IMG/VR virus record: IMGVR_UViG_3300045988_177920
Span: 1 to 64,000 of that record
Origin: a virus
Reading direction: 5' to 3' (one strand)
DNA length: 64,000 nucleotides
The notes under the pieces: generated by a model
Seen by the model: the letters and a program-made list of their open reading frames with translations, nothing else
Told to the model about the DNA's origin: nothing
Database searches by the model: none
In this document: positions 4,887 to 54,881 of the stretch, piece by piece
How positions within the stretch are numbered: position 1 is the stretch's first letter
Layout of the letters: every line of letters starts with the position of its first letter
Translations under genes and position numbers: made by a program

Positions 4887-6026
4887 ATGGAAGGTTTATC
4901 ATTTGATAATATTTATACAGGTTCTGAAATAGAAAACCTGTTTAATGAAGATATACAGGAGGACTCTACAGAAACTGTAGAAGATACTCCTGAAAAAGAC
5001 GAAGAAAAGAAAGAAGATACTACCGAGGTTAATCCTAATACTTTATTTGAGGATTCGCCAGAGAGCGTAAGTAGTGAAGAAGATATAGTTAAGGAACAGG
5101 AAAGTACCTCATCTGAAAAAGGCACTTCTCCTAAATTTTATTCTTCCATTGCTAAAGCTTTTGCAGATGATGGTATTTTCCCTGACCTTAATGAAGAAGA
5201 TATTTCTAAAATAGAAACTTCTGAAGATTTTAGAACTCTTATTGAAAGTAAAATTTCCTCTGAATTAGATGATAGATATAAAAGAATTGATAAAGCTTTG
5301 GGTATTGGAGTAGAGCCTGACATTATTAAATAGTATGAAGGCGCGTTAAATTATTTAGAAAGCATTCAACAATCATCTATAGAAGATGAAAATGAGCAAG
5401 GAGAAGAACTTAGAAAAAAGCTTATATATCAAGATTTTATAAATAGAGGATATTCCCAAGAAAGGGCTCAAAAAGAAGTAGATAAATCTATTAAAGGTGG
5501 TACTGATATAGAAGATGCTAAAGAGGCTCTTTAGGGTAATAAAGATTTTTATAAAACTGCTTATGATAAAGTCTTAAAAGACGCAGAGGAAGCCGCTGAA
5601 AAATCTAAAAAAGAACAAAAAGAACAGATAGACACACTGAAAAAATCTATACTTGAAGATAAGAAGTTTTTTGGAGATTTAGATATAGATAGATCTACAA
5701 GACAAAGGGTTTTGGATAACATAATGAAGCCTGTGTATAAAGATAAAAACACTGGAGAACTTTATACAGCAATTCAACAATATGAAATGGAGAATAAAAT
5801 AGACTTCATTAAGAATCTTGGACTTATTTTTACATTAACAAATGGGTTTAAAGATTTAAGTGGTTTTATTAAAGGTAAAGTAAGAAAAGAAGTTAAAAGA
5901 GGTATTAGTGAACTTGAGAACGTTCTTAATAATACTCAAAGAACTTCTGATGGAAACCTTAATTTTATGGGTGGAGGTAAAGATCCTGAATCCTTTATAG
6001 GAAAAGGTTGGACTTTAGACGTTTAA
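4887..6026 (+). CDS. acidic coiled-coil protein upstream of MCP (scaffold-like), 379 aa
   Basis: ATG 4887; in-frame TAG at 5331 and 5532 fuse track ORFs 4887..5333 and 5712..6026; TAA 6024-6026. It has an acidic, Ser-rich N-terminus. The scaffold call rests on position and composition only. Confidence 0.55.
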
Positions 6027-6047
6027 AATTTTTAATATATATAATTT

Positions 6048-9000
6048 ATGGCTGGTAAATTAGGTAAATTCCAAATGGTTGGATTCCAACATTGGAAGGG
6101 TTTAACTAAAGAGAACCATCTTGGTTCTATTTTTGGTCTTGCTCCCCAAAAGGCATCTAACCTTATGGTACAGCTTTTAGCTTGGTATAGAGGTAAAACA
6201 CTTGATACATTTCTTTCGTAGTTTCCTGTAAAAGAGTTCGATAAACAATTGTCGCGTAGTATAGTAATATACTAATGAAAAGACTTTAAATTGCTGGAAC
6301 GCCTTTAGAGGCACTCTGGCTTTTCTAAATAATTATTATTTCAGCAAAATGTTTAGGCTATGAATAATGAAAAATTTTATGATATAAAAAACTATGAAGG
6401 ATATAAAATTACTAAATCAGGTAAGATATATTCTTTAAAAACAAATAGATTTTTGAAATTTGATTACTCTACAGAGTATCCTAGAGTAAGACTTTATAAT
6501 AAGGCAAAACAAGATTTTGATACTTTGCTAGTGCACAGACTTGTAGCTATACAATTTATACCAAATCCAAGAAATTTGCCTTATATAAATCACAAAGACT
6601 GTAATAAGAAAAACCCTTCTATGTATAACTTAGAATGGTGTACTGCACAGTATAATACAAATTATGCTTATCAACATGGACAAATGGGTACAGAAGAAAG
6701 TAATCCAAATTCAAAATTAACTCAAGAAGAAGTTTATAATATATATAAACTAAATGAACAAGATGGAAAGTCTTATAAAGAAATAGCAAATATTTATAAT
6801 ATAAGTGCTAATACTGTTTCTGACATAGTTAGAGGAAAAAGGTGGACTAAAACTTATAAAGAATATCATGGGGTGGAAACCCCTTATATAAGAGTTCCCA
6901 AAATCTATATATCAGATGAAGAAGCAGATTTCTATATAAGGCAATATTGGATACAAGGTAAAACAACAACTCAACTAGAAGGGAAATTCAGCCAATCCAC
7001 AATAGAAAGAGTTGTTTTTGGTAAGTTAAAAAAAGACAGATTTGAATTATTTAGAAAAGAAATACAGAGAGCATTAGGTAATCAGCAGCCAAATCCTAAC
7101 ATTTAAGGAGAGGTTCAACGACTATAATAAGTCTATCCTAAGGGATAATGGTATAGTCTGAACTTTATAGAGATATAAAGATTAACAAAATTGGATGACA
7201 GTGAATATACGTGGGATGTAATTGGTTCCTCTAGAAGAAATATCCCTCTTGTATGTGCAAGAGATGAGGATGGTGCAGTAGTAACTGCAGGCAGTGCAAA
7301 AATGGTAGGTGCTCATACAGCTCCCTTTGAATTAGTCTTTGCAGAAGACTGGTTTGCCGATGGTGAAGTATTCGCCATCTAAGTATAGTAATATACTTAA
7401 AGAAAATTGAGCAAAATCGGTGAAGCCCGCCACAGCTATGGGTAATACCGAGTTAACTTTAATGTAAAATATTAAAGTAATGTAGAGGGTAGAAATTGAA
7501 ACTACAAATGGTGTTATTTACAAAATAACGTGTCTCTTAGAAAAACAAGAACATATAAATTAACTCAAGAACAAAGAAAACAAATAATACAAGAAATATA
7601 CCAAGGGTATTCAAGAAAAGACATTATTAACAAATGGGGGATAAGTAAAAGTTATTTATGTTAGTTAATAAAAGGCCAACGTAGAATATAATATTTCCAC
7701 GAGTGCTCAACTCCTGAAAAGGATGAAAATTTACCCCGAACTATTACGATGGTAAAGTAATAGAACTATAGGATAAAAAGCCTATAGGATAACATTTGGA
7801 ATACATTGTAGGTGAGCTTAATGAACTCTATCAATTCCGTATTTTAGGTGACCCCAAGAGTGAGGGAACTAATTTTGTATACACTGTAGAACTTGCTGGT
7901 GGTAATACTGCAGGTGTTCCGCCTGAAAGACTTCTCAGTGGTGAAAGATTCTCTATTGAAGCAGCCTTTGTAGAGAAGGAACTTAGTAGAAAAGTGGGTG
8001 ATATAAGATTCACAAGTCCTGTATCTATGCGTAATGAATGGTCTACCATTAGAATACAGCATAAGGTACCTGGTTCAATGCTTAATAAGAAAATTGCTTG
8101 TGGTATTCCTGTAGCAAAAGAAACCCCAAATGGCTATAAGAAAGATGTAGTTAATAAGTGGATGTTCTATGTAGATTGGCAATTAGAACAGCAATTCTCA
8201 GAATACAAGAATAATGCACTTGCATTTGGCAGAAGCAATAGAACTTAGAATGGTGAATATATGAATATAGGCAAATCAGGCAATGCAATTACGACTGGAG
8301 CTGGCCTTTTTGAATAGATGGAGGTATCCAATACTATTTATTACAATAACTTCACTCTCAAATTGCTTGAAGATGCTTTATATCAATTATCTGCTGCTAA
8401 GTTAGACTTTGGTGAGAGAACTTTTATTATAAAGACTGGTGAAAAAGGTGCAATAGCATTCCATAAAGCAGTTCTTGATACTATATCGGGATGGACCACA
8501 TTTACATTAAATGGTGATCAACTCGGAATTGTACAAAAGACTCAAAACAAATTGCATAGCAATGCTTTAAGTGCCGGATATCAGTTTGTAGAATACCTTG
8601 CTCCTAATGGCGTAAGAGTAAAAATTGATGTAGATCCGTGGTATGATGATCCTGTAAGAAATAAGATACAACATCCTAATGGCGGTCCTGCTATGTCGTA
8701 TAGATTTGACATTATGGATATTGGCTCTATGGATTAGCCTAATATCTTTAAGTGTCAAATAAAGGGGCAGCCTGAATATAGAGGATATCAGTGGGGATTA
8801 GCGGCGTAAGCCTTTACACATTTCTCAGTTCCCAATCCACGACCTAGAAACAGAAGAGGTGGATAAAGAAAAACAAGGTTAATTGCTGGAAGTTCCTTAG
8901 AGCTTTCACTGCTTTTTAAACTTCAAACATTTTAATATGGAAGTTAAAGAATTATGGAAACCCTTAGAAGAATATAAGGGTATTGAAATTAGCTCAATTG

Positions 9001-9785
9001 GCAGAGTAAGAAAAGCTGCTAATAAGAGAAGAAAAGAGAGAATATTGACAGAGTTCCCAAAAGATAGAGATGGTTATTACAGGTGCTCGGTTCAAAGACT
9101 TGATGGAACATGGACCTCACAACCAGTTCATAGATTGGTTGCTAAAGCATTTATAAGTAATGTTGATAACAAAACAGTAGTCAATCATATTGATGGGAAT
9201 AGAACAAACAACAGAGTTGAAAATTTAGAGTGGGTAACTCCTAGAGAGAATGTAGTCCATTCCTTTAAATATGGAGCCAGGAAAGTTTGCAAAGATATTC
9301 CTAAGAAAGTGCTACTTACAGATTTTCAAATATCTCAGATAGACACTCTCAGGACTCTGTATACTGTGAATCAAATAGCAAAGATATTCAATATAGAATA
9401 TCAATCTCTTAAGAACATAATTCATAAAAAGAAACAATGTGAAAGATTGGATAATCAGCAGCCAAGCAATTATAATTCAATTTATAATTGAAGGTTCAAC
9501 GACTATCCCATTTGGGAGTAGGCTTCAAGTGAAGCCGAAATGCCTTGCTCAGTTATATAACTGATGAAGATATAGTCTGACCTCTATAGAAATATAGAGA
9601 TTATACATGGAAACGATGTATAAGTAACATTAAATGTGAGAAATCCTTTCACAGGTGCTATTGGTAATCAATACATGAGCTTTGATGAAGATGCTGCTGT
9701 ATTCCACAGAATGGCAACATTTGGCATTTGTGTTTTGGATCCTACTAGAACAATGTCGTTAATACCTGCTTGCTTACAGGGTTAA
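6048..9785 (+). CDS. major capsid protein, four exons: 6048..6242, 7194..7364, 7799..8798, 9637..9785 (504 aa)
   Basis: The exon translations [19 protein letters not shown]..., [19 protein letters not shown]..., [18 protein letters not shown]...[20 protein letters not shown]...[16 protein letters not shown]...MDQPNIFKC and RNPFTG...[31 protein letters not shown] match my recollection of the prototype crAssphage MCP. These junctions preserve the alignment length. Each exon ends in T and each intron ends in G. Confidence 0.85.
6243..7193 (+). mobile_element. group I intron 1 in MCP (carries an HNH endonuclease ORF)
   Basis: Conserved core-like elements are present: aaattgctggaac (P-like), aatcagcagcc (Q-like), ggttcaacgactat (R-like) and ggtatagtctga (S-like). 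gtcg at 6252-6255 can pair with the exon end cgaT. Confidence 0.7.
6360..7106 (+). CDS. HNH homing endonuclease (NUMOD4-like N-terminus, HNH_3 core, C-terminal HTH)
   Basis: [34 protein letters not shown] and [25 protein letters not shown]. There is no in-frame TAG. The C-terminal NQQPNPNI is encoded by the intron Q-like element. Confidence 0.75.
   Translation: MNNEKFYDIKNYEGYKITKSGKIYSLKTNRFLKFDYSTEYPRVRLYNKAKQDFDTLLVHRLVAIQFIPNPRNLPYINHKDCNKKNPSMYNLEWCTAQYNTNYAYQHGQMGTEESNPNSKLTQEEVYNIYKLNEQDGKSYKEIANIYNISANTVSDIVRGKRWTKTYKEYHGVETPYIRVPKIYISDEEADFYIRQYWIQGKTTTQLEGKFSQSTIERVVFGKLKKDRFELFRKEIQRALGNQQPNPNI
7365..7798 (+). mobile_element. group I-like intron 2 in MCP (no intact ORF)
   Basis: gccatc at 7374-7379 is an exact internal guide for the exon end gatggT, with a U-G wobble. 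The intron ends in G at 7798. It shares the hairpin agtatagtaatatact with intron 1. The core differs from introns 1 and 3. Confidence 0.6.
7480..7691 (+). pseudogene. decayed homing endonuclease remnant (GIY-YIG-like start, then an HTH tail in another frame)
   Basis: ATG 7480 is followed immediately by TAG, then [25 protein letters not shown] and a stop. In a second frame, [48 protein letters not shown] ends at TAA 7689-7691. Confidence 0.4.
8799..9636 (+). mobile_element. group I intron 3 in MCP (carries an HNH endonuclease ORF)
   Basis: aattgctggaag (P-like), ataatcagcagcc (Q-like), ggttcaacgactat (R-like), gaagatatagtctga (S-like). The spliced junction gives QWG-L-RNPFTG. Confidence 0.7.
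8937..9491 (+). CDS. HNH homing endonuclease (NUMOD4-like, HNH_3, HTH)
   Basis: [45 protein letters not shown] and [20 protein letters not shown]. There is no in-frame TAG. The C-terminal DNQQPSN is encoded by the Q-like element. Confidence 0.75.
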
Positions 9786-9802
9786 TAAACAATTATATTA
9801 TT

Positions 9803-9830
9803 ATAGGTTAGGAGGAAACTCCTAACCTAT
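9803..9830 (+). terminator. hairpin after MCP (terminator or RNA-stabilising stem)
   Basis: Perfect 12-bp stem ataggttaggag / ctcctaacctat with a gaaa tetraloop, 18 nt after the MCP stop. Confidence 0.55.
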
Positions 9831-9859
9831 ATATAATATAAAACACAATATAAAAGTTT

Positions 9860-9867
9860 TAAATTTG
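9860..9867 (+). promoter_or_regulatory. TAnnTTTG -7-like element
   Basis: taaatttg lies 7 nt upstream of ATG 9875. If functional, the transcript would have almost no leader. Confidence 0.3.
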
Positions 9868-9874
9868 GAGAAGT

Positions 9875-10855
9875 ATGAAAAAAGAAAAGGAAGAATTAGA
9901 TTTGGAAAATAATGAATTGCCTTTATAGGCAATGTCAAAAAAAACCAATAAAAGAACAACTAGAGAACCTGATTATGCATATGACGATATAGTTCCTAAT
10001 TGTTTAAGAAATGAAAGGGTTATAGTTAGATATATCCCTAAAGCTAGTAGTTTGGTTACTAATCCCAAACACATCCTATATGGAGGTATGGCAGAAAATG
10101 CAACTAGAACTTTTACTGTGCCTAGATTAAGTTCAGGAGTATATGTAAATGTTCTTACAGATAAAGAAAAATAGTTTCTTGAGGAAACCATGCAACTCGA
10201 ATATAATGCTTTAAGTATTTATAAAAAAGAAAACAACTTCTGGGATGATTCTAATGATCAAGGTATATCTAGAGTAACTTTACATAAATAGGATAACTTT
10301 TTAGATTTATCATCCCCCGAAGACTATATAAAATATAAAATTCTATTAGCCAATAAAAACCTTATAGCTCCTTCATTAGACGCTTTATAGAATACGCCTA
10401 AAGCAAGTTATCAATTTGTTATAATTTCTGAAGGTGACGAAGTAAACAATGCTAAGCAGAAAATGTCTATTACTATGAGATGTTATGCAGAATATGGTAA
10501 AATAGAAAATGATGTAGATACACTAAGCCTTATAGTAGAAACTCTTGAAGGTCGTGCAGTAGCTCCTAATGTTAAATTGGAGTATCTACAAACTAAGATA
10601 AATGATCTTATTTAGGCAAACAGTAAGATGTTTATTAAAGTAATTACAGATCCTTTACTGCAAACAAAAGTACTTTTAAAGAAAGCAATTAGTGCGGGCA
10701 TTATCTCTAAGAGAGGTGACTATCTGTATTTAAGAAGTGATAACACTCCTTTATGTGAAGCAAATGAAGAGCCTACATTAGGTGTTGCTGCAAGATATCT
10801 TAATAATCCTAAGCACTAGGATGTTAAGTTTTCTATAGAGGCTAAACTAAACTAA
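9875..10855 (+). CDS. virion-module protein, unknown function (326 aa)
   Basis: ATG 9875, TAA 10853-10855. Six in-frame TAG fuse track ORFs 9932..10174 and 10628..10819. I checked the frame line by line and found no TAA/TGA. Confidence 0.6.
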
Positions 10856-33540: not shown

Positions 33541-36500
33541 TTATCTTAAAGTTGCAAACATATATGAATCATAAGCATCTGATGCATTATACATAGTATA
33601 GATAGAACGTAAAAATGGAGCTATCTTTATAAGTTTTTTTGTTAATTTAGCATCATATTTTTTATATGGCTATTCGCTTTTAGTATAAAAAACATCTCCA
33701 TATAGATCATTTAAACCATCTAATTTAAAAATTCTATTCTCTAACATATACTATAAAACTTCTAAATCATCTTTGAATATAGAGTTATAGACTTTACTAG
33801 GGTTATCTGTGAGATCAGATATTAAGTTTTCTATAACAGTTTGTTTACTAGGTTTATTTTTATCAAAACTGTTTATATGATCCTCAAGATGCTATTCAAA
33901 TATCTATACTTGATCTCTCCAATGTCTCTAATCTCCCATCCAATCAAAAGTTCGAAGAGTAGTTCCTAGAATCTCACCAATCTATAATATCATAGCTGGA
34001 GCAATCATTCCACTTCCCACATTTTCCAGGCCTTTAAATTCTCTTCTAGTAGGTGAAGTTTTATCAAACCAAACAAATATATCATTAAAAGCACTATTAT
34101 CATTAGCAACTCTTCCCAATAAATATTTTAAGCAAGCTCTTGTATCAATAGGTCTATCGTCATAATATTTATTTATACCCCTCATTTCATTAGAGCGAAT
34201 CTTTTTAAGCCTTTCTACATTCTGTTTAGTTCCAAATCTTTCAAGAAGAGTTTTTTCACTACATAGTGTTCTTTTTTCAGGATGGTTTGAATCTTTTACT
34301 TCAGTAAATAGAAAGTCTGTTATTCTGACAAATTTTTTTCCTGATAGACCTTTAAAATTTGGTAATCTATTTTCATCATATGCTTCTCTTGCTTCTTTAA
34401 TTGCTTCTTTTAAACGCTTGTTTTTTATCACATCATTATTTAAAAAGTTCCAAGGATTACTATAAGTTAAATCATAATAAGGATCGTCTTCCGGCGGCTA
34501 TTGTAAGCAACCAACTATTGAATTAAGAATAACTGCTACGGTATAATCACCAATAGTTCTTTTTATATTAGAGTATGCTTTCTTACAAAATCCTTCTTTA
34601 ATAAGCATATTAGTTCCTAATTCCTATAGGTAATTTTTATCAGTAACATGTGTCTTATATAAAAGAGAGCTAATATATCCTCCTCCATATACATCTAGCA
34701 TTCCTAAAATAGTGGCACCTATAAATTTAAAGAAGGTTCTAGGACTAGTTATAAAAGATGTTATTCCTTTAAATGAAGTAACTAAACTTCCTTCAACAAC
34801 ACCTCCAAATCCATCTTCACTCTTTTCATATATATTAAAACTGCTATCTGTAAAGCGTCTATGTACTAAACCAAAAACATATCCTTTCATATGTGCCCAC
34901 AAAGCACCCCAGACAGTTTGTTGAAAGGCATTTGCACTATCAGCATCATACATACCATGCATATTATTAAGTACACTACGCATATATGTTTTAAATTGAG
35001 CAATATCATTTATCCCCCATTTTAACTATTCCATAGTAAAGTTGGTATATTTAAGGAGCTCTTCTGCTTGTTTTCTTGTAAGCTCCACTGTATATTTTCC
35101 ACGTATTGGAGATTCTTGTATATCTAATTTACGTAAAAAATCACCGCTATGTTCTCGTATCAATGCCAACTGGTCGTCAGAAATAGTAAAATATGTAGTT
35201 CCTGTAAGGTCAGATTTTAGATAATCAGTTATATCAGATTTAAGATCATTTACTTTATTATAATTATCTGCATCCTACTAATTTCTAAAGTAAGGTTCAT
35301 CAGTCATATTTATTGTATTAACACTATCACCCACTTTATAAGATGCCTTTTTAATAGTCCATTTAAACAAACTTAATTTATCACCATTTACATCATATAT
35401 AAAGTTATTACGAAGCATTGCTATTGCAGGTATCATATTCATAGCAAAATTACCTACTGCCATTCCTGCATATAAAGATTTCATTATTAAAGTATCAACA
35501 GAAGGAATATTCTATGTATTCCATTTTTTAGCTTCTTCCTCAGCAGTTGTGGATATTTCCCAAAATCTATTCAATAGATGTAACTATGTGCTATTAAATT
35601 TCGTGGAGGACGCAGCATTTAATACAGGTATACTTAACCCTACAGACGCAGCAGTATTACTAATATTCATTGTACTAAATATTCCTAAAGCCTCTAATAA
35701 ATCTATCTAAGTGAAGTTTTCATGTGCTCCAGCTTCTTTAGCCATTTCAACTAGACCGTCAGATAAACTCACTGCAGCAACAGCCAGATTGCCTCCAAGT
35801 GCTGCTATACCTGTAATTTTATTTACACTATGTAAAGCGTTCTAAATGGTTTTTGTTCCACCTCCAAATAATGCATTCATTACTTTATTTTTAAACACTT
35901 TAGTATCTTTTACTACAATTCTAGTTAAAAATGGATGTTGATATACTTGTCTATCTAAGAATGAGGCAAATCTTTTATAAAATCTAGGAGTTTGCATATG
36001 TTCTTCTAAATCTTCATTTTTTATACCTGTTCCGGTATTGCGTTCCTAAACTAAATAATCTAATTTAGGATTTATTTTTTCTTTATCATAATTAGCATCC
36101 CGTCTTATTATAAGCTTAGCTCCATTTATAATAGACTGTGTAAACCCCCCAATTTTCCTCTTTTTTAGTACTCCTCGACCTATTTCTAAAGCATGTATAA
36201 TCTTTTCTTTTGCAGCATATTTATAGGCCATATTTCCATACATAGCAAGACCATTCCAAATATCTGTAGAAAATTGGGTATAATTCTTTACCTTTTTTAC
36301 TCCATATATAGGAAGTCTGTCAAGTTTCATATAATCATCATAGTATGGATTTTTTACTATTTGAATATCACTATCTGTAGCATGCATATCACTTCCAAAA
36401 TCCCCTTCAGTTGCATTCATTACAAAAGCTGCACCACAAGCATTTAATCCTGCTAAAATTGCTTTTCCACCTTTTTTAAAAATATTATCATTTCCAATAA

Positions 36501-38880
36501 AGGCATTACCCATTCTATGGAATAAGCTGGTTTTAAATTGAGGGGCTCTATAAGAGACAGTACTTCCACTAGGGAGGTTTTTATCTATTTCTCTTTTTAA
36601 TTGTTTAATTTCAAACAATAACTATTCTTTTTCAGACAATTCTCCCTCATATCCTTTTGAAATTATTTTTGTATACAAGGCATTATAATCTAATTCTTTA
36701 GTATACCCGAATTTTTCTAGATATGCTTTATTAATATATTCATCTTTTAAAATCCAAATTTGTTTACCACCAGGTAATTCTTTATGATAATGTGTTTTCT
36801 TTAAAAACTCACGTCTTGCACTTGCAAATTCTACAGAAAACTTTATAGCTAAGTCTCTTTCATCATAATAATCCTTATACTTCTCTTTAAACTTTTTTTG
36901 AAATTCTAATTTCATGGATTGGTATTCTCTTTCATATTTACCATAATCATATATATCTAGAAAATTCCCGGTATAATGCCCCTATTCATCTTTTTCATAA
37001 AATTCATCATTACGCATACCAATGGAATCAGCACGCTTTTTTAATGCTCTAAGCTAGTCGTGTAATTGTATGGTTTTAATTGCAGCCTGTGTTTCAGCGG
37101 CTTTATATGCCTTATACACAATCTAGTTTAAAACATCTGAAGAATTATACATAGCTCCTATCCACTATCCGAAATAAGTACCATCTTCACTAATTGCTTC
37201 TAAAAGCTATGAAATTTTAACATCCTATTCAGGAACAACAACTTGTTTAGCTCCTTTAAATATTCTCTACTAGGCCATATGTATATAATCTTTTCCATAA
37301 AGCCCCTCTAAAAACTTACAATAATAGTCTCTTGCAATGCCGTGAATGTATCTCTCCAAATTTATTTTTGAATTTTCTTTAGCTGTACTATAACCAACCA
37401 ATTCCGCTAAATTATCATATAATGTACTTAGTTGTTGTGTGTATTTATTACCTTCTTCATCATAAGCTACACGTTCTTTATATTCAGATCTTTTGTTTCT
37501 ATCTCCTATAAAGTTTTTCAAAATAACCATACACTCTAAGATTGCTTTTACAGTATCTCTATACTATCTAATTGTTTGACCATCTTGAGTAAAATTATTC
37601 CAATAATCTGTGTTGTTTTCCATATGTGCTTTTACAACAGAAAGATTTCTCCTAATAGGTTCTACTTGAACAATTAATCTTTCAATAAGAGTAAACAAGC
37701 CATTAACCGCCTATTTACGCATAATCATATCAATATTAGAGTAATCTTTAGACCCCTATACAACAATACTTTTTATTGCCTCAGCAGCTTCAGCATTATA
37801 TGTAGAAAGTAAATCAGACAGTCCCATCAAAGAATTTCTAACACCCTCAAAAGCTTGTGCTACCGCATGTTTTTCTATATCATAAAATGTTTCTTTGGTC
37901 TCCAATGCCTGTTCAACAGTTCCTTCAAAATCTTCATCATTTAAAAAGCTTTCAGCAATTTTATTTGCGCTATTTAGAGCTTCTGTTTTTAATGCTAAGA
38001 CTTCATTAAAAGTAATTTTTGCAAATATTCGTTTAGCTACATATGCGATTCTATTTGCTAATTTATCCCAAGCTGTATTACTGCTAAGCTTATTTATAAG
38101 TGCTTGTCCTACTAAATATCCAGCAGTTTCTCTTCTTGGCTATGCTCCTAAATTTTTATTTTCTAATTCGTCTCCAAAAATTCTATTAATAACGTCTGAA
38201 TTTAATAACTATTCTAATCGTTGTACTAATCTAGATTCGCCCAAAGAACCTATAATAAAGTGCCCGGCTTCTTCTGCTAACACTCCTCCAACATTTTTAC
38301 CGTCTCTAATGGCAATTAAAGCCTACAGACCATTTACAACTCTATCAGATTCTAATGTACTGTATCTTCCTTCAAATTGTGAGTGATCTACAAATTCATA
38401 TGTTACTCCATGCTGATTAAGTTTAGCCTAAAGTTTTTCAGCAAGAGTTCCGCTTTTAAGCTGTTTATATAAATCCTTTGTAGTTTTATCTGTTTTCTCA
38501 GTTATAAATAACCGCACTTTCCCCCCTTCTGTTCTTTGAATTGTTGCAAGGTATTTATCATTATAATTAGAGTTTTTATTAAAGTTAAATAACTTTTCAC
38601 AAGCCTCTTTATATGTCATTTCTCCTGCACCTATCTAATTATTAAGGGTCTCCTTTATCTTTTCATTATATTCTGTTGTATTAGCAGCTTTTAACAAGGA
38701 GGAGAATGTTGGTTCCCCCTCCTCGTTTAAAACTATTTCATTAGCAGAAGCCTCTAAAAATCTACTATCATGAGCAACATTATACCAATATTTTATAAGT
38801 TCTCTATTTTCTTTACCCACAACAGCTTCTATTTCATCCCATAGTTGGTGCTTATCAGGTTTAAGTATACAAAATCCCAT
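33541..38880 (-). CDS. giant protein (1779 aa), last gene of the RNAP block, function unknown
   Basis: ATG 38880, TAA at 33541-33543. I scanned all forward line-aligned triplets and found no tta/tca (TAA/TGA), while many cta (TAG) are present. It fuses track ORFs 38635, 38428, 37270, 36622, 36046, 35278, 34624 and 33982. Confidence 0.7.
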
Positions 38881-38882
38881 AA

Positions 38883-39725
38883 TTAACAAAGTTTTTTACT
38901 AATAGTGCCATCCTCATTTACTTCATAGCACTCTTTTTTATTTTTAATATCATTTAAAATTTTACGTTTACCTTCTTCACTAGAAGTTTCATAAAAATCT
39001 CTAAGCTAATCATCCATTCTATCTATAATGGATTTTTCATATAAAGAATTATAAGAAACAGGTTTAATAATATCAGAATCATCAAATTGTCCAATTAAAT
39101 CAGAATTTTGAATTAATTGTTCACCTTGTTTTAAGGTTCCTTTATCTACTCTATCTTCACTAAATCCTGCTTTCTAAGGAATACTTCTTATATATGTCAT
39201 TGGAATACTTGGGTCATCGGTTTTATTAAATCCCTAATTACTACCGCTATCACAGATATATAAATAATCAATTTCATCTATATTTATTGTAAATGCCGGA
39301 ACATAGCCTTTATCTTGAGATATAAAGAGCGGATTATTTACTTCTTCATTATTAACAATTAATGAAGTATTAACCTATATTTCTTTCTATGCATAACCGG
39401 TATTACCTTTAATTATTCGTTTTATTGCATTATAGTTATTATCATTTTCATATATCTATTTTACAAATCTCCTATTATCGCTATGTCGCAATATATAGAA
39501 CTACGCTATATTATCCTTTGTTTGCTATAATCCGATCTTATCAAAATTATCATTCATCATACTATAAAGCCAATCTCTATATGATTGCCTGTTTCCAGTA
39601 GCTTTATTTATAGTCATTGTTAGATTTGCAGTTATAATCTAAGGTAAATAAGGAGTAAAACTTTTTGGACCAAAGCCTCTTTCATTCTAAAAATAATCAT
39701 ACATATAAAGATCTTCAATAAACCA
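38883..39725 (-). CDS. 280-aa protein between the two giant genes
   Basis: ATG 39725 lies three codons after the RNAP TGA and in the same frame. TAA at 38883-38885, two nt before the next ATG. About 12 in-frame TAG. Confidence 0.5.
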
Positions 39726-39734
39726 TCTGGTATT

Positions 39735-42700
39735 TTCATCTTTATATAGATTTTCAAATAATGCTATTATGTCTTTTTTATCAAAATCTAAATTTGCGGA
39801 GCCTTTAAGACCAATACTATACCAATGTCTTGTTAATCCCATTGCAGTTGTTTCAGAGTGGGGTTCTATTGATATTAAACCATTTTCTTTTAGCAGCTTA
39901 AGGGTCTATATTATAGGCTCCTAATTATATTCATAATCTGAAGTATTTAAAATTATATCAGGAAATTCATATTTATAATAGTATTCCTAGGACATTATCT
40001 GTCCATTTCTTTCTATAAGAGTGTCTTTGTTAAATCTACTCTATGGAATATTTTCCATCATATATACCATTATGTCTTTAAGTATACCATTAACCGTATC
40101 CTCATCCATAGCATAATTAGCCATATCTGCCAGATTCTATATAACACCTTCATATAAATTATTTTTATATGGAAAGTATTTACACATTTTATTTAACGAC
40201 TTCCTATTCATATCAAACATTGCCTATTCATAAGCAAATGGACTAAAATCTATAGAACGTAGATAACTCCAGTTATCTGTATTTATATCAGACATACCAA
40301 TAAAATAATTTGAATCTTCTGATGAATCAGTAATAACCATAGTGGTTTTATTTTTTTTCTTCTTTTGTCTAATAGCTAAATCATCTAAGTATCTTTTAAC
40401 TCTATACTGCTATGCAATCATACTACCAAAAGATACTGCAACAGCATTACTTGCTGTAAATTTAGTATTAGTAACAAACTCAGAAACCTCTCTAGTAACA
40501 TCTAAAATTTCCTAAAATAACTTTAATACAGATAGTTGCCCAATAATAAAATCTGCCTGTTCAGATTTATTTCCAGCAATTGTTCTAGTATCTATGTTAT
40601 TTGAGTTTTTAGCACTGTTTATAACAATATTAGTAGCCAGTCTATTAGCATTTAAGTACTGAGATTCTTTTCCTGTAGCTCTAAACCCACTAAATCTTTT
40701 GTCATTTAAAAGGTAATTTAATGCACTGGAAGTAGTTCTTCCCTCATTTGCAGAAATTTGGCAAAGTTCCTTTATTATAGGCTAATTTAATAATAATCCT
40801 ATTTCTGTAGTAGAATAACCTAATCTTGCTAATACTGCAGCTGCATCTGCAGTAGTTTCATTAAGATTCAAATAATTTAATACCGGATCTTTTACAGCAT
40901 CTACAGATGCAGCGAGCAACTCAGCGCAAGTTTTTTTAGCATTAGGAGAGTGGATTAAATCTTTAAGTCCATCCATGTGATTACCGAAAGCAATGGGGCT
41001 ATTAAGCTCATATTTATGTAACATTGAGGATATGGCATAGTTAACATTTTGGTTTGCAAATATACCAATCAGTTTACTAGCTACCTAATTTTGTTCATTA
41101 TAGATTAATTCTGTTAAAGGATCTGTATAATCATAATTAGGTTTTGGATCAGGTGTATTATCAACACTTTCCTCTATTTTTCTAAAATTTAACTCGCGTT
41201 CATCAACAACATAATCATCAAAAGACTTCTAAGATAAAGTTAATATACGCATTATTTTAGCAGATCTTTTTGCTCCATTAAATTCACCAGGTTGAAATCT
41301 TTCATTAAGAGTTTCAGGGTCTTCAAGTCGTCGCATAATAAGATCCATAAGCATATTATTTCTTGCGACTCTATTATTACCCTTCATAAATTTACCATTT
41401 TCATCATAACTATCCATAACTCTTTGATTAGAATTATAACGATAATTCTATTTACGTACTATTTTTACCTATTTCTCTAATGGTGCAATCTCTCCTTGAT
41501 TTATTAAATCAGATAATGCATTACTAAAGATTTCATTCTTATCATAATTGCTCTTTAAATAATCATTTTCACCCCAATAAGAATTTAATGACTTTTTATG
41601 TATCTTTTCTTTATTTGCAGGATTTTCTTCCCACTATTTTTTTGTCTGCTCCAGATGGGTTTTAATTGAAGGATTATCCTTATAAATTTTAGCCCATACT
41701 GCATTCTTTTCTTCTTCAGATAGATTTTCATCTTCACTTTCATAATACTATGTAAATGCGAATTGTTTACGCATTAAGTATAGTTTGTCAATATCAAAGT
41801 CAAATCCTGCTGTTGTAGTGCCTTGAGCAGGAACTCTGATAACACCGCCTTGTGTTGGCAGTGAACACCTCTTAACTCTAAGGCGCATCATAGAATATTG
41901 AGACTCTGTTGGAATTCTATAAGATACAATATCAAGTATTCCAGGGTAATCCCTTTCTATTAAAGTTTCTTCTACATCAATACCTCCTATATTAATTGTG
42001 CTACCAGGCACTGTTTTAAAAGTGCCATCAGGATTACAATAGTCATTAAAATCTAACTAATGTTCCCTTCCAGACTAATCAGTCCACTTAAAATCAAACG
42101 GTATTTCACAATCTCCATAGACAATATTACCATTCTCTCCTTCTCCAACAGTGTGCCATTGTAGCCCGCCATAGTCTTTAGAATCTTCTTCAATCTTAGT
42201 TATTCCCCAAGCAGATGCTTGAACCAAAGCTCCGCCCTATATCTTCTGTTTATTAACCATTTTCTTAAATAAAGAAATAAGGGCTTGTGAAGTATTATGT
42301 TCTATACCTAATTCATATAAAGGAACTAAAAATTGGCCATCACCTGTAAGACAATAAGCTATTATATTAGCTTCATTTTCTCTACTATTAGCTATAACAT
42401 TTTGAATTAAGGCTTTACTTACCTTATCCATAGAATCTATAGCTTTCTCAAAATCCTGATAGCTTTCTATAATGTTAGCGACTATTAACTAGTTGTAAAA
42501 TTGAATAAGCCTATTGCCGTTTAAATCAACTTTTCCATTTCCTAAATTAACAGTAAGATCTTTAGAAACACCCCTCAAATAACTACTATAATCGCCTGAT
42601 TTATCAATTCCTGTCATTATAATCTTTCTAATCTATGTACCAAATAAATTAGAAGCATTTATATGTGCAGGAACATTAGTTTGTATTCTATAGTCTTTAT

Positions 42701-45700
42701 AATCTAACTCATGTATATAAGCTCCTGTACCATTATTTTTAGTATTATATATGATATCTTTAATACTCTATGAGTCTATTTTAATTAATCCCCCTTCACC
42801 ATACTTTTTAATATAAGCTCTTTGCTAAGATCTAGTTACATTTTCAGAATCAACAATGTTACCATTCTTATCCAGTCCCTATATAACTTCTCCACTCTAA
42901 TCAACGAATAATCCATTTTTATTTGTTTGAAAATCTAAAGCTATAGAGCCAAATGATCCCACTTTTACACATTTAGTAGAACAAGCAACATCTATATCAT
43001 TTTCTTCCATAGCTTCTCCTAAGGCGCGAAGGTTAGAGCCGGGAACACAAAGTTCAGGAATAATAATAACTTCTGCATATTTATGCTATACAGGAACTTT
43101 AAGAACATGCTCATTACTAACACCAACTTCTTCTATTGTATATAAATAAGGTTTTAAGGGCTAAAAAACAACATAAAGCTGAGAAAGTCTTGTTATTTCT
43201 TTCTCTGTAAGCTCTTGTCTATTCTCCTTTTTCATTCTTGATCTAATGCTTTGAATTTCATCATATACATTTTCTAAGTAGTTATTCCATTTACCTGCAG
43301 CAGTCATTACTTTTCTATAGCTTTCTAAAGTTCTATAGCCCTGGCCATCAGTCAAAGTATTATTTTTATAAGCCTTTACAACATTAGAATTTTCTCCAAA
43401 TCTTGCTTTAATTATATCCATGAAAGTAGCAGTACCATGATATTTTCCAACATCATCTGCAGAGATGCTTAAGTCATCAAAATATATAGCATGTTCTTTC
43501 CCATCTCCCAATATAAAAGACTGCTATTTTTGATCAAAAGCTTCTTCATCAAGTTTTGTTCCAGGAGCATGTAATTCCTTATAACGTTTTTGGAGATCTT
43601 CCGTATTTTTATAAAATCCGACATCAATAGTAAGCATCTATAACTAACAAACAGTTGCCAACTTATAATTGATATAAAATTCTTTTAGTCGATCTTTTAA
43701 TATACTTTCAATATCTCCCTTATTATTATCCTTAGCTGTTTTAATTTCTTCCTTTGTTAAAAAGTTTTTTAGATAAGTAGGATTGTTTTCGTCATTTAAA
43801 TCAAGTAAATGATCATTACCAAGCTGTCTATAAAATGCCTCAAAATCATTATCAATAGACTATCTTATACAAGTTTCTATGTAAACATCGTCTGCTAATT
43901 CCTCTATAATTCCCGCTTCCTTATTTGCCTTTTTATATATATGAACTTCTGTACCATTTTCAGTTTGTTCTTTCTTTAAAATTAAAAAGTCATTTAAAAA
44001 AGGTAAAGCTGTAAATTTTAGTTGATCATTTTCATCCTCAAAAGTTTCAAGTCTTTCCCAGCTATTTGCAGAGCATGTTTGGTTCATTTCTAATGCTAAT
44101 TTAGCCCTTTCAACTTCTGATTTTGCTAATCCAACCAATTCCTTTATTGCTGTGTTTTTAGAGTAATATTTAGCAGTTATATTTTTGCATACTCCACTGT
44201 CTCCTAAGATAAATAATGGATAATTTGCATAATTTTTTCCTACACCCTTTTCTCCGGCAATTAATCTTGGGCTTAAAAATAATTCTAACATTGACCAAGC
44301 ATGCCTTTTTCTAGTATAATTTTCAAATCGTCTTGCTCCTGTATTTTTAGAATCTCCTAACAATCTAAATGTTCCAAACTATTCTGCAAAACTTCCCGGT
44401 TTAGAAAGATCAGATTCATATAATTCTCTTAACCAAGTATTTCGTATTATCCATTTACTTCCATCCTCACTTCTTGTCGCAAACATAGGACAGTTATTAA
44501 AGTATTTATCTTCGATGTATAACCTAAGCCCTTCAGTATCTTTTTCTTCTACAAATTCTTGAATTTTCTCAACAAGATCTCCAAGATATGAGGGAAGAAC
44601 ATCACTTGAAAGCATTGTGTTCTTACCTTTTTTATCTACGTAAGGAACTCTTACTTCCTACGTTTTATCCAGAGCGGCTAAAATATCAGCAAGCTTATCA
44701 ATAGCTTCTTCTACTACACCTTTATCACTTATAGATTTTGGAGGCTTTATACTTAAAAAAGAAGCTATTGATAATTGTCCTCCAGAATTTATTATTTGAT
44801 CTATAAGACTTTTGTGATTTAGTGAATATTTATATAAATTCTACATTGCAGACTAAAACCTTCTTGCATATCTGGAATTAGTAGCAATAGTGTTTGCAAT
44901 TTCTGTAGATATATTAAATCCTAGTTTACTTCCTATATACTTTATAATATTAATTCTAGTAAGTCTATCATTATCTTCTTCAGTTTTTGCTGATACTCCA
45001 ACATTTTGCATAAACTTTGTCGGAGATTCTATAAGAGATTTGCTTTCTCCTTCTTTTTTAGTAACCTCTCCCTTTACAAACCAGTCGAATATAGTATTAG
45101 AAAAAGTTTTTAATTCTTCAGTATCTAATACTACACTTCCTCCTTCTTGTCTTTTAGCTAAGGTATTCACATTTCTTCCGGATATAAGTAATTCTCTACC
45201 ATTATATAGTAATGACTTTGCAGTAGCTGCTAAATTAAATCCCTTTTTATCATTTAAACAAAAAGTTTTTAAGTAATGCATTCCCTAAGAAATTACTTCC
45301 TATACTACATATAAGGGTTGAAAATTTCTTTTTAGATCTACAAAAAATTTAGTTTGTAGTTTTGATGCTTCTGCAGCTTCATCTTTTATATACTATATAA
45401 AGTCTCTTTGCTCCTATATTTTAGACTCAGATTCATTACTTAAAATCATATCTGCCAACACTTGTTCCTCTTCAGCAAGTGCATCTAAAAATTCCTATTT
45501 AGTATCAAAAGATTCTGATGAGTCATCTCCATATCGTACAGTTAAAGTTAGTTTATCTAGGATAGGCTTAAGCCAATATCTCCTTCTATTATCGCCAGTT
45601 TTACTGAAAAATTCATTATAAGAAGACTCTGTATATTTACGAAGCTTTCTCATCATTCCTCTAGATGAAGTAGTTCCTCTTACTGCATCTAGTAATACCT

Positions 45701-46589
45701 AATGCACCTATACTGGGTCTAGGTATTTAGTATTACCTAAGTCATCTTTTTCTATTTCACCATATTCATTTAACTAAGGTGTATTTGCTAAAACTGCTCT
45801 TACTTCATTTCCTATAGAAGCATATGCTGACAAAGATTCTGCTATTTCCTACCAGCCTTCTCTGATAGAGGATTCCTCTATATCAATTTTTTCTTGTAAA
45901 TCTTCTAATTCAAAATTGCCGTCATTTGCAGTATCTGTAAAATCATTAAAGGCACCCATTTTAATACCTTCTATATCTCTAAGACGTATTCTTGCAAGAG
46001 TAACCATTGCACTCCAATTTCTTAAGACTAATTCTATTTGTTCTGCTTCATATTTAGCAGTAAGATCTTTTTCATCAGAGGTTTTATATTGTTCCCAGGC
46101 ATCAGATCTCTGTTCAACCAATCTACGGTACATTTGATTAAATATATACTATTGTCCAAAAATAGCTCTTCCTTCACTATCAAAGGTACCTTTAATAATA
46201 AACTCTCTTTCTAATCCTGCGGCATCTAAATCCATTTTCATTGTTTCAGTCACCATATCACTAAACATATGGCTTATCCAACTTACTCTTGCTTCTCTAA
46301 TAGACGCATTAGGAATTTCATCTTGAAGTTTAACAAATACTGAGGCAATATTTGTACCAGCGGCTTTAATCTCTTTAGCTTCTTTTTGCTTTTGTTGTCC
46401 TTCAAATTTAGTTATAATTGCTTTAATATCAGAATCTTCCATAGATTCCCAATTCTAATCTCCATAAGTTTCATCATATAATCCTCGCATCCATGCAAAA
46501 TATTTAGATGTGCTTTCTGGAGAACCTAAGAAAGGGTCACTCTAGGCTAATCTTTTATCAAGTTCTGTAGGTATATAACACGGTCCCAT
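39735..46589 (-). CDS. crAss-type virion RNA polymerase-like giant protein (2284 aa)
   Basis: ATG 46589, TGA 39735-39737. I scanned the frame and found no TAA/TGA across 2284 codons, with tens of TAG. AGFDFDIDKLY (DFDID at 41787-41801) is the DxDxD metal-binding motif reported for crAss-like / phi14:2 gp66-type RNAPs. Confidence 0.75.
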
Positions 46590-48488: not shown

Positions 48489-48944
48489 TTATTTATCTGA
48501 AAAACTTTTTTGAGTATAATCATCATAATTATCAGAAGGATGACCTTTTTCAAAACCCCTTTTATTTCTTTTATATAGACTTCCATCAATATCTAATGTG
48601 CCCGATTGCCAACAAGATTGAATATCCATAGAAAACCATTCACCATATGGAGTTCTTGTAAACCATATTATATTTGTATCATATTCTGGTATAGAACAAC
48701 CCACAAAGAAATCAGTGGTTTCAGCATAAAGTTCAGGGTTATCTTCATGTTTTTCTTTTAGAATATTCTGTAATGTCATAGGCATTTCACAGTCATATCT
48801 ACTATTAAAAGCATTTACAATATAGTATTCTTGACTATAAGGAATTATATCTGTTACCTTAGCTTCATAACACCGAGAAGGTGTGAATCTTCCACTATCA
48901 AAGAAATGATAGATTCGCTCTTTTTCAGGAATGGTTGTTTTCAT
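48489..48944 (-). CDS. hypothetical protein (151 aa)
   Basis: Track ORF with a TAA stop. Confidence 0.55.
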   Translation of the reverse strand: MKTTIPEKERIYHFFDSGRFTPSRCYEAKVTDIIPYSQEYYIVNAFNSRYDCEMPMTLQNILKEKHEDNPELYAETTDFFVGCSIPEYDTNIIWFTRTPYGEWFSMDIQSCWQSGTLDIDGSLYKRNKRGFEKGHPSDNYDDYTQKSFSDK

Positions 48945-49120
48945 ATACTATATTTGATTAACTCAGAAGATAATGGAAACACTTTTAACCATTGAATTTC
49001 GCGTTTTTCTTTAAGGCGATTTATGGTAGTTTCAACATCATCTAAAGATTCACAACATTCACAACTAATGTTTACATAAAAAACATCATCTGAATATCTA
49101 TAAATTATTATATATTTCAT
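48941..49120 (-). CDS. small Cys-containing ORF (59 aa)
   Basis: ATG 49120. TGA 48941-48943 overlaps the next ATG (ATGA). MKYIIIYRYSDDVFYVNISCECCESLDD... It is below the track cutoff. Confidence 0.35.
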   Translation of the reverse strand: MKYIIIYRYSDDVFYVNISCECCESLDDVETTINRLKEKREIQWLKVFPLSSELIKYSI

Positions 49121-49135
49121 ACTATTAGAGTATAC

Positions 49136-49291
49136 TCATATTACAAAGTATTTATTATACAAATCTTCAGGTACAAAATATGCAGCATTACTCTCTGAAT
49201 TAATAGAGAAACCTGTATATACTCTACTTTCATATTCAGGGTCTTCCATTACTAACTGAATATCAGGCCATTCCACTAATATATATTTCAT
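49136..49291 (-). CDS. small ORF (51 aa)
   Basis: ATG 49291 overlaps the upstream TGA (ATGA); TGA 49136-49138. MKYILVEWPDIQLVMEDPEYESRVY... Confidence 0.3.
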   Translation of the reverse strand: MKYILVEWPDIQLVMEDPEYESRVYTGFSINSESNAAYFVPEDLYNKYFVI

Positions 49292-49530
49292 ATTTCTAAG
49301 GTATATTCATAAACATTATCGTCGCACTCGTCACAATGATATATAAATTTAGGGATACCATTCAATTCAAGAAAATCAATAATCATATCTTGAATGCTTG
49401 AATTATTACCATATTTATCAATTAAAGATTTAAGTATGTTTTTTTGTTCTTGTAGGGTAAAATCTTCAATTTTTTTATTATCAATATCCAGATTATACGC
49501 CATACAACCATCAGTATATGTTAGTTTCAT
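49288..49530 (-). CDS. hypothetical protein (80 aa)
   Basis: Track ORF with a TGA stop. Confidence 0.5.
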   Translation of the reverse strand: MKLTYTDGCMAYNLDIDNKKIEDFTLQEQKNILKSLIDKYGNNSSIQDMIIDFLELNGIPKFIYHCDECDDNVYEYTLEI

Positions 49531-49561
49531 ATAAATTTATTATAATCCATCTTACAATTAT

Positions 49562-49864
49562 TTACTTTTTATTACTTCGAATTTCTTTTTCTAATACACG
49601 AGTTATTAAATCAAGATTCATTTTAATTTGCTTATATACATCCCATTTCTCCTCTTTACCTGATGGTGGCCAATCAGATATAATTATTTCATATTCACAT
49701 CGTGACCACCATTGATACATAGAATTTGATTTAACAAATTCAACCATTTCTTTATGGGTTTTAGGTTTAGGGGATGCGTTTTTATATCTATCGTAAAGAT
49801 AAGGTATTATATCGTAAGGAACAAATTTACCATTATCTTCAATTATAACATTAAAACTATTCAT
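49562..49864 (-). CDS. hypothetical protein (100 aa)
   Basis: Track ORF with a TAA stop. Confidence 0.5.
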   Translation of the reverse strand: MNSFNVIIEDNGKFVPYDIIPYLYDRYKNASPKPKTHKEMVEFVKSNSMYQWWSRCEYEIIISDWPPSGKEEKWDVYKQIKMNLDLITRVLEKEIRSNKK

Positions 49865-49890
49865 TTATTAATATTATTATTTTTGTTTTT

Positions 49891-50217
49891 TTATTGTTGT
49901 CGATTAATAAGTTTGGTTATGGTTAAGCGAATAATGTCCATAACTGAATATCCCTTAGACGCCAGATTGGCCATTTCGGGCGAATGGACAATGTCATTTG
50001 CAATGTCTTCCATTCCTGCAAGGACATCAATAGTTAAGTCCTTAGCACCGCAAACACGGTATATATCATTAAGATGATCTGCGTTGGTCGTGCTTGCAGA
50101 CATAGGTCCGTGGTGGCGAATATACCATACACCATCCCGCAGGTAGTTTAGATTAACAAGCCTACCGACAGGGATGTATCGGCGGCCTGCTTTGCGATAA
50201 ATATTTTTGTCTGTCAT
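49891..50217 (-). CDS. hypothetical protein (108 aa) in a locally GC-enriched segment
   Basis: Track ORF. Its DNA is visibly richer in G+C than its neighbours (for example gcgttggtcgtgcttgcagacataggtccgtggtggcg and atcggcggcctgctttgcg). Confidence 0.55.
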   Translation of the reverse strand: MTDKNIYRKAGRRYIPVGRLVNLNYLRDGVWYIRHHGPMSASTTNADHLNDIYRVCGAKDLTIDVLAGMEDIANDIVHSPEMANLASKGYSVMDIIRLTITKLINRQQ

Positions 50218-50480
50218 AATAAACTTAATTTATTTTCTAATCGTGCTTGATATTTTTTAATAGCACTCATAATATCAAGAAGTAGATCATAATCATACCT
50301 ATTTAAAGACCAAGTTTTCCAAGTATAGACATTTTCTTTATTACTATTTACCTTTAAAGTAATATTTAAATCTTTCCTATCTTTATAATCATCTAATGAT
50401 TTACAAAAATCGATAGTTTTAATAAGTTTATCTGCTTCTTTAAGAGCTTCTTGTTTTTGTTTGTATTCTTCTATAGTCAT
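50214..50480 (-). CDS. hypothetical coiled-coil protein (88 aa)
   Basis: Track ORF with a 4-nt overlap with the upstream gene. Confidence 0.5.
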   Translation of the reverse strand: MTIEEYKQKQEALKEADKLIKTIDFCKSLDDYKDRKDLNITLKVNSNKENVYTWKTWSLNRYDYDLLLDIMSAIKKYQARLENKLSLL

Positions 50481-50513
50481 TATTATTCTATTTAGTGTTG
50501 TTACATTATTATA

Positions 50514-50759
50514 TTATTCAAAAATTAATATAGTTCCGCTTTCATCTATATCTATAGATTTTAATACTTTGCCGTCTATTTTAAATTCTCCTACAGCCAT
50601 GAAAGGACCTCCAGGAGGATCTACAGCGTAATAAGTTGTATTATCCTCATTATATATAAGTCGACAATAATCCTCATATTGAGCATGAAGTCTATATTTA
50701 TTATTTCCCAGATATTCTAAATAATTATTTGATCTGTCGTGTGTGGGTAATTTAACCAT
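50514..50759 (-). CDS. hypothetical protein (81 aa)
   Basis: Track ORF with a TAA stop. Confidence 0.5.
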   Translation of the reverse strand: MVKLPTHDRSNNYLEYLGNNKYRLHAQYEDYCRLIYNEDNTTYYAVDPPGGPFMAVGEFKIDGKVLKSIDIDESGTILIFE

Positions 50760-50763
50760 AATT

Positions 50764-50803: not shown

Positions 50804-50811
50804 TAATTTAT

Positions 50812-54878: not shown

Positions 54879-54881
54879 TTG

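Follow-up and report, generated by a model that had tools for sequence, protein, structure and literature searches.

How can a phage make its major capsid protein (MCP) from a gene whose reading frame is broken by three long inserts? The question is raised by a 64,000-nucleotide stretch of viral DNA (positions 1-64,000 of the IMG/VR record IMGVR_UViG_3300045988_177920, hereafter the window; coordinates are window positions on the plus strand), for which an original prediction had proposed that the MCP frame is recovered by joining four exons across three introns of the self-splicing type. All of the exon coordinates of that join were found to hold, and we consider it very probable (about 92%), on the evidence of sequence, that the three inserts are group I introns which would be removed at the junctions given in Table 1; that they splice autocatalytically is what we infer from their structures.

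The joined exons form a frame of 1515 nt, with 504 codons and a TAA stop, and the inserts (951, 434 and 838 nt) account for 2223 of the 3738 nt of the gene, in agreement with the earlier estimate that about 2.2 kb of a 3.7-kb gene is intronic. The spliced product aligned end to end with crAss001 gp32 (PDB 7qof), residues 1-504 on residues 1-504, with an E-value of 3e-257 in phmmer and no gap at any junction when TAG was read as glutamine, and this full-length homology places it among the Crassvirales major capsid proteins. The gp32 protein is the solved capsid protein of Bacteroides phage crAss001, with the HK97 fold. The residue count was said to be preserved across the junctions, and the three junction peptides do read straight through (EFDDDSEY in the window for EFEDDNEY in gp32, FADGEYIVG for FADGEVIVG and QWGLRNPF for QWGIRNPF). 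A tblastn search of GenBank phages gave 73-80% identity over the full length to crAss-like capsid genes without interruption (cr85_1, crAss001 and the PhiCrAssBcn series; 80% to cr85_1 and 73% to crAss001), and among the best 80 of roughly 460 IMG/VR relatives there were 75 with uninterrupted MCP genes, whose DNA is colinear with the spliced coding sequence over all three junctions. The phage is crAss-like (Crassvirales), close to Steigviridae/Asinivirinae; when 24 kb of the window was compared by megablast with the GenBank phages there were zero matches, and the genome is not deposited there.

Junction 1 is settled to the nucleotide because a relative with exons 97% identical (locus L130) lacks intron 1 and has the empty site TTCGAT/GATGAC (here and below the slash marks the junction). 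The ligated junction sequences are AAAGAGTTCGAT/GATGACAGTGAA for junction 1, which is also present in intron-less alleles such as that of L130, TTTGCCGATGGT/GAATACATTGTA for junction 2 and TCAGTGGGGAT/TGAGAAATCCTT for junction 3. The last base is T in all three 5' exons and G in all three inserts, so that the rule by which exons end in U and introns in G is true throughout, as had been proposed. A junction 1 placed one base away would yield the consensus EFEDD but was rejected, as it violates the U and G rules and conflicts with the empty site of L130.

These same data bear on whether the inserts might be translated and then removed as inteins, or else skipped by the ribosome through hopping or frameshifting. 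Other crAss-like genes, TerL for example, commonly contain inteins (PMC7886860), and insert 1 has a length divisible by three, but a TAA appears in the exon frame after only 11, 6 and 3 codons of inserts 1, 2 and 3 respectively, neither insert 2 nor insert 3 has a length divisible by three, and no Hint domain was found with Pfam, the open reading frames (ORFs) within the inserts being HNH or GIY-YIG with starts of their own. With the early stops and the insert lengths against them, the translated inserts that the original prediction had named as its own counter-reading can be set aside; the intein reading, to which we give next to no credence, is already refuted by the sequence itself.

The spliced frame is open only with four in-frame TAGs (6219, 8246, 8315 and 8735) read as sense codons. 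In a comparison with 74 uninterrupted relatives, three of the four stand opposite CAA/CAG in 73-74 of them, and the TAG in exon 1 (6219-6221) has a CAA/CAG counterpart in 73. Reading TAG as sense turns 129-46589 into long ORFs with 1-65 TAGs each (for example, 65 in an ORF of 2715 codons); this recoded block consists of plus-strand genes from 129 to 33491 and minus-strand genes from 33541 to 46589, and the minus-strand genes at 48489-63870 are almost free of TAG (two in one short ORF). The pattern is the late-gene TAG-to-Gln recoding already described for crAss-like phages (PMC7886860).

For intron 2, the original prediction had pointed to an internal guide, GCCATC (7374-7379), and this does pair with GATGGT (7359-7364) as helix P1, with a U.G at the splice site. 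The complementarity goes further, as the guide GTATTC-GCCATC (7368-7379) complements the whole of the junction GATGGT/GAATAC, with P10 (7368-7373 pairing 7799-7804) bringing the total to 12 bp. The guide of intron 3, ATTTCTCA-GTTCCC (8820-8833), likewise complements GGGGAT/TGAGAAAT over 15 bp in total (P10, 8820-8827 pairing 9637-9644; P1, 8828-8833 pairing 8793-8798). Judged against 20,000 junction pairs taken at random from the window, the contiguous P1 plus P10 pairing of 12 bp in intron 2 had p of about 0.006 and that of 15 bp in intron 3 p of about 0.0006. P1 is 4 bp long in intron 1, 6 bp in intron 2 and 6-7 bp in intron 3, and all three introns have the U and G expected at group I splice sites. 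The short P1 of intron 1 draws its sole support from covariation with a homologue one codon apart in locus L087, where CGAT/GTCG (exon end and guide) is replaced by the compensatory GGAT/GTCC.

In all three introns the P3-P8 and P4-P6 helices form, together with the P7 pseudoknot, giving a group I core, and helices P1-P9 are free of mismatches save for one A.A in P5a of intron 1. The three introns are of two structural lineages, introns 1 and 3 being type 1 and intron 2 type 2. Subgroup IA, the phage type of group I intron, is marked by additional helices, P7.1 and P7.2, that lie between P7 and P3'; both are present in intron 3, intron 2 has P7.1 and a possible 3-bp P7.2, and intron 1 has neither. 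For the type-2 structure (P3, P4, P5, P6, the P7 pseudoknot, P7.1, P8, P9.0 and P9 were scored), 93.8% of cells were paired across 17 sequences compared with 25-45% when the partners were slid, and compensatory changes were found in 30 of 49 pairs, the P7 pseudoknot included (GGGTA/TACCC in the window, GCATA/TATGC in cr128_1 and GAGTA/TACTC in locus L185). For type 1, aligned from 17 ORF-less relatives and the ORF-deleted introns 1 and 3, the values were 85.5% against 32-46% slid, with compensatory changes in all 5 pairs of P3 and in most of P5, P6a and P9; in the MAFFT alignments used (A1 and A2), P8 and P7.1/P7.2 are partly misaligned, which lowers the paired fractions. In the ORF-less type-1 introns a conserved peripheral extension, ACTACAAC...GTGAATGTTTAAAA, lies inside P5a (about columns 150-200 of A2; for example, 5680-5740 of locus L002); this extension looks like a P5abc-like domain, and the endonuclease ORF stands in its place in introns 1 and 3 of the window.

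The type-1 core shared by introns 1 and 3, CAGCAGCCAA...GGTTCAACGACTA...ATAGTC, is absent from the rest of the 64 kb. The type-2 core of intron 2, AAAATCGGTGAAGCCC...TAGAATATAAT..TTCCA.GAGT, was found in 105 copies in IMG/VR by an exact-pattern scan, and its 3' part shares 70-74% identity with the ends of introns in Staphylococcus and Clostridium phages and also ends an endonuclease-bearing insert by which the terminase gene of Staphylococcus phage S-CoN_Ph10 is split. No further group I core or endonuclease homologue was found in the 64-kb window, so all of its detectable introns sit in the capsid gene. In the Clostridium phage phiCD211 (locus L322, LN681537.2) the type-2 3' core has a match at 1501-1918, between the minor tail protein and tape measure genes and just upstream of a feature annotated Intron_gpI, which suggests tandem or composite introns there.

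The Rfam model for group I introns, RF00028, has a gathering score of 50 bits, and in E-value mode its sole significant match in the window was to the 3' half of intron 3 (9330-9599, 41 bits, E 3e-8), intron 2 giving 12.9 bits (7355-7540, E 8). The gathering score is reached by none of the window introns and is reached by the ORF-less orthologues in L002 and L087. L002 (Bajarodcaudo virus 1) has an ORF-less intron exactly at the intron 3 site, nearly identical to window intron 3 outside the ORF, which scores 77 bits; in L087, from IMG/VR, the homologue of intron 1 lacks an ORF, lies one codon further downstream than in the window and scores 88.9 bits. One member of the type-2 lineage scores 34.3 bits (E 3e-5). 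The weak scores in the window arise because the endonuclease ORFs (555-747 nt) split the ribozyme cores. As a test of the original prediction, the covariance scan thus recognised intron 3 and failed for introns 1 and 2 as they stand, and it is the scores of the ORF-less orthologues and the covariation of both core types that uphold three group I-type introns, with self-splicing the predicted consequence.

Several results weigh against this account of the gene. A scan of the whole window with Rfam at the gathering threshold gave zero matches, and in E-value mode intron 1 had no match to RF00028 even at E 10. The guide of intron 1 (GTCG against CGAT, a 4-bp P1, plus 3 bp of P10, 7 bp in all) is no better than chance in the junction-pair comparison (p of about 0.27). 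Each covariation structure was drawn from the very sequences on which it was then scored, which inflates the paired fractions and not the compensatory changes. Finally, ARAGORN found zero tRNA genes, hence no suppressor tRNA, in the 64-kb window, so the expected TAG suppressor tRNA would be encoded elsewhere in the genome or supplied otherwise.

An alternative is that at least one insert is derived from a group I intron and is not self-splicing, the likeliest candidates being intron 1, whose P1 has 4 bp, and the endonuclease-less intron 2, so that a phage or host protein cofactor would be needed, or that splicing is inefficient and yields a throttled capsid supply or exon-skipped products as in orf142 of phage Twort. 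The chance-level guide pairing and missing Rfam match of intron 1 fit this view, skipping of exon 2 (171 nt, a multiple of three) would preserve the frame, and group I exon skipping in a three-intron phage gene is published, as cited in PMC11878797 (Landthaler and Shub 1999). However, the core helices of all three introns are intact and are preserved by compensatory changes in close homologues, which argues for selection for a working ribozyme, and the capsid protein is indispensable and encoded in single copy here, no second capsid gene copy being present in the 64-kb window. We therefore regard a non-self-splicing insert as unlikely, and three working group I introns as the better account of the locus.

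Table 1. Exons, introns, intron helices and endonuclease genes of the split MCP gene, in window positions (paired strands of each helix separated by a slash).
Feature	Position	Strand	Description and evidence
MCP exon 1	6048..6242	+	aa 1-65; in-frame TAG 6219-6221 as Gln; tblastn and phmmer to crAss001 gp32
Intron 1	6243..7193	+	951 nt; compact type 1 without P7.1/P7.2; terminal G 7193; core common to intron 3
Intron 1 helices			P1 6239-6242/6251-6254; P2 6257-6263/6268-6274; P3 6281-6286/7129-7134; P4 6292-6297/7082-7087; P5 6302-6304/7076-7078; P5a 6311-6318/7065-7072; P6a 7094-7097/7106-7109; P7 7120-7124/7154-7158; P8 7135-7138/7143-7146; P9 7163-7169/7174-7180
Intron 1 ORF	6360..7106	+	248 aa; HNH-type plus HTH; looped out of P5a; TAG-free
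MCP exon 2	7194..7364	+	aa 66-122; alignment to gp32, relatives colinear
Intron 2	7365..7798	+	434 nt; type 2; terminal G 7798; covariation and 12-bp guide
Intron 2 helices			P2 7380-7387/7392-7399; P3 7407-7412/7705-7710; P4 7417-7421/7447-7451; P5 7425-7428/7440-7443; P6 7457-7463/7471-7477; P7 7487-7491/7732-7736; P7.1 7502-7505/7681-7684; P8 7712-7715/7720-7723; P9.0 7741-7747/7757-7763; P9 7766-7772/7781-7787
GIY-YIG remnant	7480..7688	+	in P7.1 loop of intron 2; dead; compared with intact L130 copy
MCP exon 3	7799..8798	+	aa 123 to first base of codon 456; in-frame TAGs 8246, 8315, 8735
Intron 3	8799..9636	+	838 nt; type 1 with P7.1/P7.2 (subgroup IA-like); terminal G 9636; RF00028 41 bits
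Intron 3 helices			P2 8835-8840/8859-8864; P3 8874-8878/9543-9547; P4 8884-8889/9455-9460; P5 8894-8896/9449-9451; P5a 8903-8909/9439-9445; P6a 9467-9475/9482-9490; P7 9501-9505/9573-9577; P7.1 9506-9509/9514-9517; P7.2 9521-9526/9531-9536; P8 9549-9555/9558-9564; P9 9582-9588/9593-9599; P9.1 9604-9608/9616-9620
Intron 3 ORF	8937..9491	+	184 aa; NUMOD4 plus HNH_3; looped out of P5a; TAG-free
MCP exon 4	9637..9785	+	remainder of codon 456 to aa 504; stop TAA 9783-9785

The ORF of intron 3 matches the Pfam families HNH_3 (50.5 bits) and NUMOD4 (31 bits), both exceeding the cut-off, and so has the make-up of an HNH homing endonuclease as far as its domains go. That of intron 1, its paralogue (27% identity, E 5e-15), has HNH_3 at 21.9 bits (cut-off 24.8) and HTH_38 at 24.9 bits, both just under the cut-off. 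Each runs into the ribozyme core, the 3' end overlapping P5a'/P5'/P4'/P6 in intron 1 and P5a'/P4'/P6a in intron 3, and both proteins end ...NQQP..., which is encoded by the P4'/P6 core. Both genes are free of TAG, and all other long ORFs of the recoded block 129-46589 have TAGs.

Intron 2 was compared with its copy in L130 by tblastn of the endonuclease, since a global MAFFT alignment misplaced the 5' part. The L130 copy is 830 nt long and encodes an intact protein with 47.1 bits on Pfam GIY-YIG (in-frame TAGs read as Gln), of which the window keeps amino acids 1-17 and 146-202; about 128 codons are deleted, the catalytic domain among them, and no GIY-YIG catalytic domain was found in intron 2 of the window. 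The remnant lies in two different frames, one for the N-terminal 17 codons (7480-7530) and another for the C-terminal HTH part (7518-7688), and a 44-aa ORF at 7530-7664 has weak HTH matches only. The intact GIY-YIG ORF of L130, on the reverse strand of that locus, contains about nine in-frame TAGs; the contrast in TAG content between the endonuclease genes may reflect different ages or expression times.

Another way to view the locus is as a capsid pseudogene broken by free-standing endonuclease cassettes, in which case the phage would be defective or its capsid would be built from separately translated fragments. Public annotations of the relatives do give the pieces as separate 'major capsid protein' coding sequences (CDSs), and no Rfam match in the window reached the gathering threshold. 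Yet the ribozyme cores are complete and have covariation support, there are precise guides for both exon ends, the fragments rejoin to exactly 504 aa with nothing lost or gained, the ribozyme of intron 2 is intact though its endonuclease gene is non-functional, and many phages that have otherwise diverged keep the same introns at the same positions. A broken capsid gene is thus very improbable, and a gene restored by splicing remains the reading that we prefer.

From the sequence we infer splicing, its autocatalysis, its timing and endonuclease activity as follows. The capsid gene would be transcribed as one late pre-mRNA of about 3.7 kb, in which each intron would fold as a group I ribozyme whose internal guide pairs the upstream exon end (P1, with the U.G wobble at the cleavage site), the guides of introns 2 and 3 also pairing the start of the downstream exon (P10). 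Free guanosine would attack the 5' splice site and the released exon would then attack the bond after the terminal G of the intron, to leave the 1515-nt reading frame, in which the four TAGs would be read as glutamine, as in other late genes of the phage, to give a 504-aa capsid protein of predicted HK97 fold. The intact HNH endonucleases encoded in introns 1 and 3 would presumably cleave or nick capsid alleles that lack the intron in co-infection, so that the intron is copied in, and intron 2, having lost most of its GIY-YIG gene, would persist as a ribozyme only.

The introns have a patchy distribution, with close as well as distant relatives differing in intron presence and absence, and the differences between close relatives are evidence of mobility. 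In the fetched loci there are at least a dozen sites at which capsid genes are split. The introns of L130 lie after aa 18 and 122, with none after aa 65. The closest deposited relatives with split MCPs are cr128_1 (Mahlunavirus rarus, NC_055885), with introns after aa 18, about 293 and 456, and Bajarodcaudo virus 1 (PQ006092), with introns after aa 18, 122, about 292, about 340 and 456. Both share with the window an orthologous intron at aa 456 and Bajarodcaudo virus 1 also that at aa 122/123; their introns after aa 18, about 292-293 and about 340 are absent from the window, and neither has the aa 65 intron. In both records the capsid fragments are interleaved with homing endonucleases with no joined CDS, and in the RefSeq record of cr128_1 (locus L001, NC_055885.1) the region 1167-1500 holds capsid exon 1 (aa 1-18, 1167-1220), which is unannotated, followed by a type-2 intron, about 280 nt long and ORF-less, that is also omitted, making three introns in that gene, not two. 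In loci L165 (IMGVR_UViG_3300029614_000004) and L320 (IMGVR_UViG_3300045988_166369) the capsid gene is in seven pieces and so has six introns, exceeding the published five-fragment example described below.

A further sign of mobility is that intron 3 has copies in phages whose exons on either side of it share only 70-76% identity with those of the window, while the ribozyme parts are 89-98% identical; copies with and without the ORF both exist at this site. The compact lineage of intron 1 was found in 16 IMG/VR stretches, with capsid-gene sequence at 14 of the 16 loci, at four or more sites that include about aa 60-62, 65/66 (the window only), 66/67 and 456/457; no second copy after aa 65 was found among the loci of this lineage, and the window intron there appears to be at a new site. 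Homologous compact introns lie after EFED in L087 (9287-9614, minus strand) and after EFD in the window (6229-7205), with guides matched to each site, a pair that suggests transposition to a neighbouring site. It is possible, though we hold this only tentatively, that the crAss-like capsid gene is a dedicated hotspot in which a few intron lineages move between sites by altering their guide sequence.

Downstream of the gene, 17 nt past the capsid stop codon, a perfect 13-bp hairpin with a GAAA loop (9802-9831) has no T run and is the source of weak spurious Rfam matches (MIR7994 and SprD). An intrinsic terminator scan of 5800-10000 did not call it, and a sigma-70 promoter scan of the same region gave promoters not above the shuffled expectation, Bacteroidota promoters being outside the coverage of that scan.

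Intron-split capsid genes are already known in crAss-like phages. Yutin et al. 2021 (PMC7886860) described group I introns in MCP genes of Delta- and Zeta-group crAss-like phages, with one gene in five fragments, and noted introns in combination with alternative codes; a 2023 review (PMC10136315) refers to a capsid gene of the Zeta group that has three such introns. Like the window, these Delta and Zeta MCPs (PMC7886860) are in 4-5 fragments with endonuclease ORFs in group I introns and late-gene stop reassignment; they differ in that the published introns were recognised from protein domains only, in that the window phage is nearest the Beta group/Steigviridae, and in that the published Zeta example has no recoding inside the MCP whereas the window MCP has four TAGs in its exons. 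The original prediction, though right about the introns, omitted this published precedent along with the TAG recoding and the homing endonuclease genes.

Beyond the crAss-like phages, three group I introns in one late structural gene are known experimentally from Twort orf142, according to the citation of Landthaler and Shub 1999 in PMC11878797. The likeness to the window lies in three group I introns within a single late structural gene of a tailed phage, orf142 being a tail tube gene; it is a different gene in a phage of another host phylum, and in the window two of the three introns carry endonuclease genes and are known from their sequence. The orf142 introns are said to be ORF-less, their splicing reportedly having been demonstrated by experiment. 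The subgroup IA2 introns of T4 td, nrdB and nrdD have P7.1/P7.2 and endonuclease ORFs looped from peripheral helices, and home into intron-less alleles in mixed infection. Those T4 introns lie in nucleotide-metabolism genes, one per gene, in contrast to three in a structural gene in the window, where the ORFs are in P5a or P7.1 and run into the ribozyme core.

The window is therefore a well-documented new example of an intron-split crAss capsid gene, of a phenomenon already published, and it extends such genes to the crAss001-like (Beta/Steigviridae-like) branch. With its three introns and four TAGs, this capsid gene is broken by standard-code gene callers into at least six fragments, and the exon coordinates, guides and helix maps given here permit a correct joined CDS, while the two alignments could seed covariance models for similar introns missed by RF00028. 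Two unrelated group I lineages and two endonuclease families occur in one gene, with one endonuclease in decay. Were the hotspot idea to be true, these genes would form a natural record of intron retargeting in one essential late gene, by reverse splicing or relaxed endonuclease specificity, and the insertion after codon 65 in the window would be a fresh transposition event. By principles that are not in themselves new, the most abundant virion protein of this phage would depend on three RNA splicing events as well as on stop-codon suppression.

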